Of a stretch of 64,000 nt of DNA, positions 3,001 to 6,000 are shown piece by piece (the first letter of the stretch is position 1; each line of letters begins with the position of its first letter). The stretch lies in assembly GCF_056712565.1 (NCBI RefSeq), contig NZ_CM160072.1; one strand, 5' to 3'. Position numbers: made by a program.

Positions 3001-6000
3001 TCAGAAATCGAAGGTGACGGATGCACGCACTTCGCGGCCGCCGCCGATAAACGCACTTGGGGAACCGTTATCGCCATCGGTACCCGATGGGAAGATAGAA
3101 GCCCAGTAATGTTTATCAAACACGTTGTTTACCACCACGCGGAAAGTGGTTGGGACGTTGCTCACTTTCGTGGTGTAACGCGTTCCCAAATCCCATGTGG
3201 TATAGCTGCTGGCGTAAGAGGTGTTGGTATCGTTCGCCGCGCGTTTGCCCGTATAATGGACGTTAGCGCTGTAAACCCATTCCGGTATGGACGGCAAACT
3301 GTATTCCGCCAACAGATTGGCCTGCACTTTCGGCACGCCGACAACCTGTTTATTGCTGGTTGAGGCATTCGCCGTATCTTTCAGTTTCGGGTCGAGGAAG
3401 GTCACGCCGCTGTAAATATTCAGCCCCTGCCACACATTCCCGGCAGCGGTTAACTCAAGGCCGTTGTTAACCTGGTTACCCTGCTCTTTATACACGTTAT
3501 CCGTATCAAGATAGGCAAACGGACGTTCCAGTCGGAACAGCGCGGCGCCTAGATTCATCTCGCCGATGTCCGATTTTAGCCCCACTTCATACTGCTTGCT
3601 GCGATACGGGTTTAGCGTTTGACCGGCATTTTTTACGCTCTCATCCGTCGGTGCGGTACCGCCCTGCTCCAGCGAATCGGCATAGCTAACGTAGGCCATT
3701 GTGTTAGGGGTAATTTTATACATCAGCGCGGCGTTCGGACTTAAACCATTTTCATCAACCTGGTTCGTTTGATTACCGTGCTTATCGTAGTTTTTAGTCT
3801 GCAGCCAGCTCTGGCTGAGATAGAACATTGCCGACCACTGCGGCGTAAATGTCACCGTATCGCCGAGCGTAACGCTCTGCTGAGTATTTACGCTGGAGCG
3901 GTATCGCGGCCCGCCGGTGCGGATTTTGCCATCGCCCTGCTCATCTATCGCATCCGGGTGATACATATTTGTTGTACCCCAGCTATAGCTGGAACCTGTT
4001 CCTTTGGCACTATAAAGCGACCAGACATATCCCGTGGTAGAAAGTGACAGATCGTGGCCGATAGAGCCGGTATCAATATGACCATTCAGCCCGGCGGTGT
4101 TGCTCAGGACGCGAAAACGTCCGGCAGCGGTGGAATCCTTCATCGAACGAGAGATATCGCCCTGATTGTTGAGTATTTTACTGGAAACACTACGCATCGC
4201 GCGGTCAGCCTGCTGCCAGCCCACGCCAGCGTTCATGGACCAGTCGTCGTTAAAGTAGTGGATCAGGCGAGTGCTGATGGTATCGGTAGTGAGGTCGTTG
4301 CCCGCAGTGCTGAGCGCCAGATTTTTGTCCTTCGGATTCGGCGCAGACGGCAGTTTGACGTTCGGCCCATAGTTAAAGCTACCGACATAGCCTTTCTGGA
4401 TAAATTCGTAATGGCTGGCGTCGAGCTGTAGCTGAGTGCCCGGCTGAATATTCCAGTCGAGCGCAACGGAAACGAGTTTGCGACGCAGCGTGCTGTCATC
4501 CACATTGCCTTCCCCTTCCTGATCAAGCAGGTTCACGCGATAGCCAAACCGTTTGTTTTCATCAAAATGGCCACCCAGATCGGCATGGCCGGTAAACGCA
4601 CTGCGGCTTTGATAGCCCAGCGTCACTTTACGCAGCGTCTCTTCGGTTGGGCGCTTCGCCACGAAATTAAACTGCCCTGCTGGGCTCGCCGGGCCGTACA
4701 GCGCGCCGGTCAAACTGTTAAGCACATCCATGCGCTCAAGCATTTCCACCGGAAACGCGGTTGTTGAAACGATATTCAGCCCGTCCAGACGGCTGTTGGC
4801 CACCACGCTGCCCTGCATCCCCCGACTTTGCGGACGCCCGACATCCATTCCACCGCGCGCCTGCATTTGCGTACTGGGAGAGTATTTCAGCATCTCGCTG
4901 ACGCTTTGCGCCTGCTGATTTTCAATCATCTCTTTAGTAACAGTGGTGCTGGAATATGGTGTTTCGATCCAGGATTTCGTTCCCAGCGGGCCGACATCTA
5001 TATCGTTCGTTTTGAAACCGGCACCGGCGGCAGAATCGGTGGTGTCGGCGGCGGTGTTGCCCGTGACAATCATTTCATCTTCAGAAGTAGACGAGGCATG
5101 AGCATGAAGCGGTATGAAAGACGCTAATGCTGGCAAAAGCGCAGCGAAAGTTATTTGAGTTTTCATGAATCACTGATCGTTATGTAAATATTTATATTAC
5201 GATCGGTGCATAGGCAAAATTATGATCCAGATCACACGTGAATGTAAGTTATTTACAAATTACGCTAACCTTCTGTCTCCGCTCTTTGCAGCATAAAAGT
5301 ATGGCGGCGCGTTGTTGAAAGCAGGAGCGGCCGGGTTGTCAGAAAGCTGGTTTGGACGCAAGTAATATATAACAACTCTGATTACCGCATACTGTCAGGA
5401 CAGTATCTACTTGAGCGTCCGCCTTTGGCACAAAGCGGACTGTCAGATTAGATTCAGACCTGTACTCATTAGCTGATACAAATCAGCCACATATACCTGC
5501 ATTCAAAATAATTTCAGAAAGATATTATCTCCGTGAATCCCCCGCCACCTTTCCGGTGCACGGGGTTTTGTCTTTTTTCACTGGGAATACATGTATGAAT
5601 CCGTCTGATGCCATTGAGGCAATTGAAAAACCGCTCTCCTCCCTGCCTTACCCGATTTCCCGTCACATCCTGGAACATCTGCGCAAACTCACCCGTCACG
5701 AACCCGTGCCTGGCATTATGGGTAAAAGCGGGGCCGGTAAATCCTCACTCTGTAATGCACTGTTTCAGGGGGAGGTCACCCCGGTCAGTGCACTCATGAC
5801 AGTGCTTCCCGGACATGCCGCCATCCATCTGATGACACGCCTGCAGGACGAACTGCGCACGGAGTCTGTCCGCACTCAGACCCGTGAACAGTTTACCGGT
5901 GCGGTGGACCGGATATTTGACACGGCGGAGAGTGTCTGCATTGCCTCTGTTGCACGCACGGTTCTGCGCGCCGTCCGTGACTCGGTGGTCTCTGTTGCCC

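Follow-up and report, generated by a model that had tools for sequence, protein, structure and literature searches.

The gap between the TonB-dependent receptor gene and the yeeP-like open reading frame in the window (the whole 64,000-nucleotide stretch of DNA that was analysed) is 428 nt long and contains all three motifs singled out by the original prediction: a palindrome, a short direct repeat and an imperfect hairpin. The positions of the two reading frames confirm that these motifs lie in non-coding DNA. The features of the junction are collected in Table 1; coordinates are those of the window, which equal those of the strain 536 locus (L001) minus 8834.

Table 1. Features at and around the junction between the iron-uptake genes and the yeeP module
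Feature	Position	Strand	Remarks
Cassette cargo, fit-like iron uptake genes	1-5416	-	strain 536 annotation
Substrate-binding protein gene	2001-2993		in the fit-like cargo; permease and ATPase genes upstream
TonB-dependent receptor gene	3001-5166	-
Left B-type site of the cassette, GTCCGTTGTGAGCGAACAGCGGAC	L001 8531-8554 (strain 536)		some 300 nt to the left of position 1
Inverted repeat ATACTGTC-AG-GACAGTAT	5389-5406	.	8-nt arms, 2-nt AG spacer; extends ACTGTC-AG-GACAGT
First ACTGTCAG copy	5391-5398	+	within the inverted repeat 5389-5406
A-type 24-bp site	5417-5440	+	arms GTCCGCCT (5417-5424) and AAGCGGAC (5433-5440); centre TTGGCACA (5425-5432)
Conserved right flank TGTCAGATTAGATTCAGACCTGTACTCA	5441-5468	+	homologous to the P2-like flank TGTCAGATTAGGCTTTACTCTGTGCCA
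yeeP-module promoter (likely), TTCAAA-15-TATTAT	5502-5528	+	outside the junction site
Terminator-like stem CCCCG...CGGGG and T run	5540-5578	+	intrinsic type; between the promoter and the yeeP ATG
yeeP-like open reading frame	ATG at 5595

The palindrome ACTGTC-AG-GACAGT, which had been put first among the motifs, does exist, but at 5391-5404, one base above the coordinates first given (5390-5403), and it is not a perfect palindrome since its AG spacer is not self-complementary. The second ACTGTCAG copy, announced about 45 bp downstream, is present at 5439-5446, 48 nt from the first, start to start; it corresponds to the right arm of the hairpin continuing into the conserved flank (GCGGAC joined to TGTCAGATTAG). 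In 1000 dinucleotide shuffles of 5167-5594, a perfect inverted repeat with 8-nt arms and a loop of at most 12 nt arose in 8.5% of cases (P = 0.085), and in 32% an 8-mer recurred exactly, in direct orientation, no more than 100 nt away (P = 0.32). Thus, both motifs fall within chance and are statistically unremarkable. The palindrome, which lies in the cargo-side flank 10 nt to the left of the hairpin, has no exact match in IMG/VR, and a role as a repeated operator was rejected on that ground. It is also missing from all other left flanks of related sites that were compared, being private to that of the window. It is probably incidental and, like the direct repeat, stands outside the mechanism proposed below.

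The third motif, the imperfect hairpin first noticed as ccgcctttggcacaaagcgg, extends in full over GTCCGC-N12-GCGGAC, at 5417-5440. As read from the sequence, two inverted arms of 8 nt enclose an asymmetric centre, also of 8 nt. It belongs to a class of sites, here called A-type, with the consensus GTCCGCYN/NRGCGGAC for the arms and (C/T)T(G/T)GCACA for the centre; the centre found in the window fits this consensus, and the same variant class occurs in viral contigs and in genomes. The pattern GTCCGC-N6-24-GCGGAC, expected 0.1 times per 64 kb, has its sole match in the window here, and no other typed site was found in the window at up to 3 arm mismatches. As single-stranded DNA, 5417-5440 folds with -8.6 kcal/mol (z = -2.6). 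It is the comparative data presented below, not this expected count or the fold energy, that give the hairpin its significance. The site is preceded by AGC (5414-5416), where AAY is usual, though not universal, at A sites. The conserved flank on its right takes in most of the second ACTGTCAG copy, and the last 10 nt of this flank are a decayed inverted copy of TGGCACAGAG.

Several conventional identities were considered for this element. Rfam gave no match within 4500-7000 at E <= 1, and none at the sites of nine related loci scanned with gathering thresholds. An intrinsic terminator was discarded, since neither strand has a T run and the site is faced by genes from both directions. A sigma-54 promoter (TGGCAC-N5-TTGC) was rejected on direct reading, the -12 element being missing. 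A dif/XerCD site was rejected too; 5417-5440 is not known to resemble dif, and nothing in the sequence points to the host XerCD.

When the gap was compared by megablast with 5,426 E. coli genomes, the matches confined to its left side ended at 5440 and those confined to its right side started at 5416-5426; 5416-5440 is the boundary between variable and conserved DNA in these comparisons. The DNA found at this boundary in other strains contains, in addition to A-type sites, a second type, B. B-type sites share the arms but have the centre TGAGCGAG (consensus (T/A)GAGCGA(G/A)), nearly the reverse complement of the A centre. Read directly, a whole B site is almost the reverse complement of an A site, with 22 of 24 positions matching. 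Homology between genomes starts or stops exactly at sites of this A/B family. Strain 8178 carries one extra gene at the site, in a 1.07-kb insert between two copies of the hairpin. CFT073 and SSGw1 carry four genes there, including one for a 200-aa tyrosine recombinase, with A, B, B, A', B' and A sites as the boundaries; this block of 4.27 kb is 99.8% identical to a block in a lambdoid prophage of strain M21816, and the block ends at sites. By direct reading, the sites of strain 8178 are hybrids of those at 6144 and 7158 (B with B) and at 8184 and 10370 (A' with A) of locus L010, and the site of the window is a hybrid of those at 6102 and 10370 (A with A). The three arrangements are separated by single events, each involving two sites of like type (A with A, B with B) and readable as an insertion or a deletion alike. 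The crossover intervals could be bounded to 9-15 nt of identity and span the centre plus the right arm. The same like-with-like rule, and the same products, are expected from RecA, Red or RecET at 24-bp repeats. The yeeP junction is a slot: strain 536 has nothing in it, and other uropathogenic strains have one or four genes there.

A and B sites were found in 1,265 of the 5,426 E. coli genomes, at 1-5 places per genome, and are confined to accessory DNA. With spacers of 8-16 allowed, all zero-mismatch arm matches in E. coli loci L001-L015 had a spacing of 12; the sole off-spacing match in these loci has one mismatch and a spacer of 10 (L009). The family extends well beyond this species: near-identical copies of the hairpin occur at hundreds of phage and genome junctions, GTCCGCTTTTGGCACAAAGCGGAC is found across Alpha-, Beta- and Gammaproteobacteria, and the site is present in many bacterial orders. 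A set of 120 viral contigs contains 124 A sites, with more than 65 different left flanks and few classes of right flank. In these contigs, every A site that has an upstream B site (82/82) shows the order B-cargo-A in one orientation, with a spacing of 0.4-5.8 kb. Arrays also occur, in which A-linker-B doublets of 66 nt are found and each cassette comprises 1-3 genes in either orientation; site numbers reach 9 over 9.6 kb in L175 and 8 in L170. The cargo is rich in anti-phage genes. The sites lie at the Z/fun hotspot of P2, at the ren-side hotspot of lambdoid phages and in yeeP-type islands, and they adjoin a P2-type tail fibre assembly gene or the lambdoid ren/O genes. In phage P2, an A site stands beside gene G and a degenerate B site beside the FI promoter, with fun(Z) between them; phage P37, whose G-FI gap is empty, has neither an A nor a B site. 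A sentence in a review credits Nilsson et al. (2004) with the finding that inverted repeats flank fun and enable site-specific recombination (PMC8987985). Judging from this sentence and the P2 sequence, the A and B sites that flank fun are probably those inverted repeats. A literature search with the motif as a string found no relevant paper. A further candidate in P2-like loci, named 'C-type' (GTCCGCTTATGAGGCGGTGGGGAC) and lying some 5 kb away from A, was dismissed as coincidental, being a poor palindrome at a fixed position of the backbone.

In strain 536, the A site of the window is accompanied by a B-type site of like orientation, 5.7 kb to its left and on the cargo side. Within the window the A site is a solo junction, where the fit iron-uptake cassette meets, at its right end, the conserved yeeP module. 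This redefines the supposed left boundary of the island: the fit operon is a cassette in its own right. A comparison with the right boundary of the island had been suggested to look for matching repeats; 5350-5480 and 14800-16800 share no word of 9 nt or more and the hairpin is not repeated there. A pair of island attachment sites (attL/attR), in which one sequence, usually derived from a tRNA gene, is present at both ends, was rejected because the right boundary shares no repeat and no tRNA gene is involved; 5417-5440 divides modules within a composite island, not the island from the chromosome. The original suggestion of a relic attachment or recombination site is supported for the imperfect hairpin alone, through its coincidence with homology breakpoints and its duplication around cassettes inserted in sister strains, and then as something other than the usual island attachment site. 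Conservation at homologous junctions turned out to be partial. All three motifs are missing at the K-12 CP4-57 and CP4-6 junctions, which have only the downstream promoter and terminator in common with the window, and the yeeP gene of K-12 CP4-44 is 5'-truncated and lacks the region; the hairpin is kept at closer yeeP-type junctions in other E. coli. The likely yeeP-module promoter can be aligned with TTGAAA-15-TATCAT, which precedes both yfjP and ykfA in K-12 and appears as a constitutive promoter in the RpoD genomic SELEX list (PMC3946193). The K-12 paralogues also have a stem and T run at the place equivalent to that of the window's terminator-like stem, with a different stem sequence.

The 200-aa tyrosine recombinase of CFT073 (WP_001305361.1) matches Pfam Phage_integrase (E = 5e-19) and is devoid of the usual N-terminal core-binding domain. 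Its gene lies in E. coli between an A' site and a B site, the latter coming after the gene's 5' inverted repeat. An A' half-site is always found at the 3' end of the gene, in E. coli, in a Cycloclasticus-like contig and in Idiomarina; two inverted sites with a third type of centre flank the gene in Amphritea. The 64-kb window contains no homologue of this recombinase. Among the loci with A sites, the gene was found within the fetched DNA in 7 of 120 viral and 2 of 120 genomic cases, so that the link between enzyme and site either is not general or operates in trans. The deposited phage collection contains no close homologue, the best match being 59% identical.

Taken together, these comparisons make it rather likely that 5417-5440 is a solo A-type cassette-junction site and a target of recombination, with the 200-aa tyrosine recombinase as the putative enzyme. 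The arms of A and B sites would bind a dimeric recombinase, for which this conserved protein is the best candidate, and exchange would take place within the centre; recombination would then be limited to sites with like centres, and cargo lying between unlike sites would be exchanged through two crossovers. The window's site would be an unoccupied or collapsed junction, usable in trans only since the recombinase gene is missing from the window. We suggest, much more tentatively, that the highly conserved 200-aa recombinase, together with A sites, B sites and those of other centre types, may make up a previously uncharacterised integron-like system of cassette exchange, operating like with like at heterospecific 24-bp sites and moving defence and fitness genes among P2-like phages, lambdoid phages and yeeP-type islands across Proteobacteria, with the window's hairpin as a docking site. 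Defence systems have been described as moving between unrelated mobile elements (P2, P4 and other phage hotspots), with homologous recombination a difficult explanation (bioRxiv 10.64898/2026.02.27.708500). Text searches of two such hotspot papers found no description of flanking sites. One 24-bp site at the boundary of cargo in three unrelated backbones, with at least two heterospecific types and a physical tie to one small, very conserved tyrosine recombinase, offers a specific and experimentally testable mechanism.

These arrangements could also have arisen, with no dedicated recombinase, from occasional crossing over at short conserved repeats, either by general homologous recombination (RecA, or phage Red/RecET) or by slippage during replication; the palindromes would then be kept for some other reason, such as protein binding, the stability of transcript ends or the insulation of modules. 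We consider this possible, if doubtful. Recombinase genes are missing near most A sites, prophages with recombination genes of their own make up many of the host elements (for example the exonuclease beside the locus in L012), and the three inferred events took place between direct repeats with 9-15 nt of identity, where homology-driven deletion would give the same outcome. However, 24 bp is at the lower limit of homology for RecA, and the near-invariance of the arms, together with the recurrence of GTCCGCTTTTGGCACAAAGCGGAC in three classes of Proteobacteria, calls for a sequence-specific partner. Neither the constant B-cargo-A orientation (82/82) nor the presence of the A' half-site on the recombinase gene across distant genera is explained by homology alone. 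Another reading is that the sites are ends of a transposable element: the 66-nt A-linker-B doublet would be a REPIN- or MITE-like miniature of an autonomous A'-recombinase-B element, the cargo would be DNA caught between neighbouring copies, and the window would have kept a solo, half-decayed doublet. As B is nearly the reverse complement of A, the doublet forms an inverted pair of the kind found in REPINs; the recombinase gene sits exactly where the linker would be and is flanked by inverted sites in Amphritea; the decayed inverted TGGCACAGAG copy lies about 17 nt past the A site in both the window and P2; and some genomes have many copies. We nevertheless regard this reading as improbable, given the low copy number in E. 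coli, the lack of any observed target-site duplication or known HUH/RAYT-type transposase, the folding of the doublets as two hairpins rather than one long one, and the fact that tyrosine-recombinase elements usually integrate and do not transpose.

A regulatory role, in which a dimeric regulator would occupy the inverted arms as an operator of the yeeP module and TTGGCA-18-TAGATT would serve as a rightward promoter, appears very unlikely. The site is kept upstream of yeeP-type GTPase genes in several islands, and a consensus scan found TTGGCA (5425-5430) and TAGATT (5449-5454), 18 nt apart, to match at 9 of 12 positions; this weak match is what speaks for the regulator binding site originally put forward. 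Yet promoter-like matches are not commoner than in shuffled sequence (3 found, 1.8 expected), and the site also stands beside tail fibre genes, ren and many unrelated genes in both orientations. Furthermore, K-12 yfjP and ykfA keep the downstream promoter without the site, and the promoter that the SELEX data support is the one at 5502-5528. A last reading, in which chance within AT-rich intergenic DNA would account for each of the three motifs, agrees with the shuffling results for the inverted and direct repeats, but is refuted for 5417-5440 by the recurrence of the hairpin at hundreds of junctions and its position on homology breakpoints; as an account of the whole, it is hardly credible. 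The reading that we retain, a cassette-junction site recognised by a putative tyrosine recombinase, can be set against several known systems.

Among the closest is the Z/fun ('TO') locus of P2-like phages, where Nilsson, Karlsson and Haggard-Ljungquist reportedly described in 2004 inverted repeats flanking a variable region in P2-like coliphages. There, fun has an A-type site on one side and a degenerate B-type site on the other, and the right flank of the window's site (TGTCAGATTAG...) is homologous to the P2-type flank; the window's copy differs in being solo and in lying beside an iron-uptake operon in a yeeP/CP4-44-type island, not in a P2-like phage. Short palindromes and inverted doublets between genes are also known as REP/REPIN sequences and as the dRS3/NIME elements of Neisseria. 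In dRS3, two arms surround a spacer and the repeats flank mosaic intergenic segments, a layout comparable to that of the A and B sites. REP/REPIN sequences are recognised by high copy numbers in core intergenic regions and by an associated RAYT, whereas A and B sites are low-copy in E. coli, restricted to accessory DNA and free of the GTAG tetranucleotide. The pdif modules of Acinetobacter plasmids, gene modules located between XerC/XerD-type sites, resemble the A/B cassettes in consisting of discrete modules bounded by short sites in alternating orientation, with the same modules found across backbones. Integron arrays share with A/B arrays short cassettes separated by conserved imperfect palindromes, a single orientation, cargo rich in anti-phage genes and, at some loci, a linked tyrosine recombinase, and the AAY...RTT flanks of A and B sites recall the inverse-core and core motifs of attC. 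However, attC sites have RYYYAAC and GTTRRRY cores, fold as one long bulged hairpin and are 57-141 nt long, against 24 nt for A and B sites (66 nt for the doublets), which have no GTTRRRY core. An attC-like long hairpin was rejected for the A-linker-B doublets, whose minimum-energy fold consists of two local hairpins. An IntI-type integrase was rejected as well, the 200-aa recombinase scoring 15.9-17.6 bits with integron-integrase models whose cut-offs are 265-435. Finally, the core sites of tyrosine recombinases (loxP and its variants, FRT, dif), as also used in recombinase-mediated cassette exchange, have, like the A and B sites, inverted arms around an asymmetric centre of 6-8 bp; the A/B arms are only 8 bp long, and the candidate enzyme has only 200 aa, is devoid of the usual N-terminal domain and is not encoded near most sites. 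The resemblance extends to heterospecific spacers, in that two types of centre are combined with identical arms, all observed events join sites of like type, and the cargo lies between unlike sites.

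The gap between the receptor gene and yeeP does contain the palindrome, direct repeat and hairpin of the original prediction, each lying one base further to the right than had been claimed. The palindrome had been described as perfect; its inverted repeat is present, but the AG spacer is not self-complementary. The second copy of ACTGTCAG and the imperfect hairpin, GTCCGC-N12-GCGGAC, were both found. Among 1000 dinucleotide shuffles of the gap, 8.5% contained an inverted repeat with 8-nt arms and 32% an 8-mer direct repeat within 100 nt; the hairpin pattern is expected to match 0.1 times per 64 kb, and its DNA fold has a z value of -2.6. 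Of the three motifs, the hairpin alone stands out by statistics. ACTGTCAG itself occurs six times in the window, a number reached by no shuffle, versus 1.04 expected; five of the six copies fall between 5391 and 8595, and the dynamin-family gene contains three of these.

Features of the gap, its neighbours and related loci (window positions unless a locus is named; L010, SSGw1; L136, phage P2)
Feature	Position	Strand	Length	Remark
TonB-dependent receptor gene	3001-5166	minus		left of gap; last gene of fit-like iron ABC-transport cluster
Gap holding all three motifs	5167-5594		428 nt	
Inverted repeat CACTGATCGTTATGTAAAT/ATTTATATTACGATCGGTG	5171-5208		19-nt arms, no spacer	84% complementary, AT-rich; just upstream of receptor start codon
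Inverted repeat ATACTGTC-AG-GACAGTAT	5389-5406			
Hairpin	5417-5440			
Second ACTGTCAG	5439-5446			
Promoter TTCAAA-15-TATTAT, stem and T run	5502-5578			directly before yeeP ATG
yeeP-like ORF, short	5595-6029		144 aa	right of gap
Perfect inverted repeat CATACTCAAATCTCC-N9-GGAGATTTGAGTATG	L010 8826-8864; L014, L015 9601-9639; L012 4020-4058		15-9-15	overlaps recombinase start codon
Remnant of second tyrosine recombinase C-terminus (…HSFGRHLLYGHVHPKILRVRMGHEKYESTEV…)	L010 8990-9190	plus		untranslated, upstream of HEC-08 gene; by eye
Backbone inverted repeat (…AATCTGACA-[B] … [A]-TGTCAGATT…)	L136 300-350, 2446-2490			P2-like phages

When the gap was compared by megablast with 5,426 complete E. 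coli genomes, homology proved to break at the hairpin. The junction of the window recurs in 864 of these genomes, and uropathogenic strain 536 and its relatives match the window at 100%. One class of matches is confined to 5167-5440, and in another, large class homology begins only at 5416-5426 and runs rightwards. In other islands the same hairpin precedes a yeeP-type GTPase gene, with quite different DNA on its left side. Strain 8178 carries here a 1.07-kb insert with a single gene of the ETEC_3214 family and a 25-nt copy of the hairpin on either side, and CFT073 and SSGw1 carry four genes, encoding a 269-aa protein of unassigned function, ETEC_3214, a 200-aa tyrosine recombinase and a HEC-08/DUF3644 defence candidate.

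All copies read together have an 8-8-8 layout, in which arms GTCCGCYN and NRGCGGAC enclose an asymmetric centre, either (C/T)T(G/T)GCACA (A type) or, between the same arms, (T/A)GAGCGA(G/A) (B type); B is the reverse complement of A save for two centre positions. The spacing is 12 in every zero-mismatch arm match of the E. coli loci, the off-spacing exception being a one-mismatch match in locus L009. In SSGw1 the order is fit genes; A, an 18-nt linker and B; the 269-aa gene; B; ETEC_3214; A', at the 3' end of the recombinase gene; that gene; a 15-9-15 inverted repeat and B'; HEC-08; A; and yeeP. Between the first B and the last A lie 4.27 kb that are 99.8% identical to a block in a lambdoid prophage of strain M21816, which means that the block, ending at the sites, has travelled between contexts that are not related to each other.

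The rearrangements follow site type. In 8178 one site, GTCCGCTGAGAGCGAGGAGCGGAC-ctcag, matches the SSGw1 site B(6144) on its left and B(7158) on its right; the other, GTCCGCATCTGGCACAGAGCGGAC-tgtcag, matches A'(8184) on its left and A(10370) on its right. The window site joins the left flank of A(6102) to the right flank of A(10370), with one more base change. All three natural rearrangements are thus between like types, within crossover identity intervals of 14, 9 and 15 nt, each of which includes the centre. The hairpin belongs, as a recombination junction, to a defined and widespread family whose layout is strict.

Strain 536 has a B site 5.7 kb to the left of 5417-5440, about 300 nt before the window start, with a decayed A site and a linker in front of it, so that the fit operon is itself a B-cargo-A cassette, of which 5417-5440 forms the right end. 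It directly adjoins TGTCAGATTAGATTCAGACCTGTACTCA, a homologue of the P2-type right flank, which terminates in a decayed inverted copy of TGGCACAGAG. The second ACTGTCAG exists because the right arm runs on into this conserved flank; the first, with its surrounding palindrome, lies in a flank private to the fit cassette and was found nowhere else among other A-site flanks or in IMG/VR. The suggestion of an attachment or recombination relic therefore holds for a recombination relic or slot, but at the hairpin, not the palindrome, and at a junction of modules, not at the end of an island; as a whole, the original interpretation is partly supported.

Several features of the surroundings deserve mention. 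The yeeP-like ORF is probably a truncated gene, GTPase-family homologues of other islands having about 290 aa. Beyond it come dynamin-family, RdcB-family and patatin-like genes, then cbeA/cbtA, yeeW, tmaR and sbmC; in K-12 and other islands Ag43 (flu) takes the place of the first three. Downstream of the promoter before yeeP, at most about 12 nt away, come a stem like that of an intrinsic terminator and a T run, a layout kept with a different stem sequence at K-12 yfjP and ykfA (L008 14610-14690; L009, upstream of ykfA), whose promoters come from RpoD genomic SELEX (PMC3946193). Such conservation of layout suggests an attenuator or a very short leader transcript. For the repeat next to the receptor gene, a role as a Fur-type operator in the fit operon is conceivable.

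We propose that exchange at the sites would be site-specific, the arms serving as binding sites and the centre as overlap region. Pairing would be confined to A with A and B with B, and cargo between unlike sites would be stable, yet replaceable via two crossovers. The mechanism is now testable. Homologous recombination at short repeats, which would yield the same products, is a serious rival, and we regard it as possible, if somewhat doubtful; that the sites are REPIN-like transposon ends seems unlikely. The many unrelated contexts of the site and its absence from the K-12 paralogues disfavour an operator or promoter, and an attC site is disfavoured by size and folding.

For site-specific exchange, the 200-aa protein is the candidate enzyme. 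It matches Pfam Phage_integrase (E = 5e-19), weakly resembles XerC, XerA and FimB-type proteins, and retains, as read by eye, the catalytic motifs LRGCDL, HSLRRT, LLGH and the tyrosine in TVRY. It is present in 885 of the 5,426 E. coli genomes, and homologues 76-96% identical number in the thousands (Enterobacterales, Idiomarina, Pseudoalteromonas, Cycloclasticus). The gene end always adjoins an A-type half-site fused to a small stem, GTCCGCNNNTGGCACAG-GGCTGCTGTTRCAGCCCTG, in E. coli, a Cycloclasticus-like contig and Idiomarina; in Enterobacterales a B site lies beyond the inverted repeat at its 5' end, and in Amphritea a 60%-identical recombinase gene is flanked by two inverted sites with a third type of centre. 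Nevertheless, no homologue was found in the window, and the gene occurs, within the DNA examined per locus, in only 7 of 120 viral and 2 of 120 genomic A-site loci listed, which counts against a simple enzyme-site partnership. The 15-9-15 repeat might serve as an operator in autoregulation, or else represent another type of recombination site. The protein is unusually conserved for the product of a mobile-element gene: in Idiomarina (L264) and Cycloclasticus-like loci (L258-L263) the genes are 81-84% identical and keep A' at the 3' end, among ordinary chromosomal genes (gcvP, a two-component system) or an arsenic-resistance-like cluster.

A genomic scan with one genome per species gave at least 120 loci. 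Among the matches listed, B-A arrays of up to eight sites occur in Pantoea, Enterobacter, Citrobacter, Erwinia and Rahnella, and sites of the form (G)AAY-GTCCGCTTTTGGCACAAAGCGGAC-RTT(C) in Hyphomicrobiales, Bradyrhizobium, Rhodospirillum, Nitrosospira, Neptuniibacter and Amphritea. Two arrays are integron-like, with nine like-oriented A-type sites in 9.6 kb (L175, a Hyphomicrobiales MAG) and eight alternating A and B sites in about 4.3 kb of a 14-kb locus (L170, Ca. Pantoea deserta); further centre types, TTGACCCA and TCGGGGTA, are interleaved in them.

An exact-pattern scan of IMG/VR found at least 124 A sites on at least 120 viral contigs. Their left flanks, of more than 65 kinds, are nearly all different and mostly end in AAY; the right flanks form few classes, one just 3' of a P2-like tail fibre assembly gene, another next to lambdoid phage replication genes resembling ren and O. 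Among the viral matches listed, typed scanning found A and cargo-side B in the same orientation in 82/82, at distances of 0.42-5.8 kb (median 1.45 kb), and B agreeing with the nearest A in 91/95. Arrays contain A-linker-B doublets, with RTT after B sites. Among the proteins encoded in 48 distinct cargo intervals are retron reverse transcriptases, PD-T7-1, AbiH, Shedu, TIR and HEPN proteins, along with dehydrogenases, an MFS transporter and a LysR regulator.

In phage P2, fun(Z) has an A site adjoining gene G and a degenerate B site adjoining the FI promoter; in Yersinia phage P37, with nothing between G and FI, no site was found. P2-like cargo looks as if inserted at the centre of a longer palindrome, judging from the backbone repeat. 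A literature search with the motif as a string returned nothing relevant, and term searches in recent phage-hotspot papers yielded no description of flanking sites. A sentence in a review (PMC8987985) credits Nilsson et al. with inverted repeats flanking fun that enable site-specific recombination, so that the family has probably already been described in outline.
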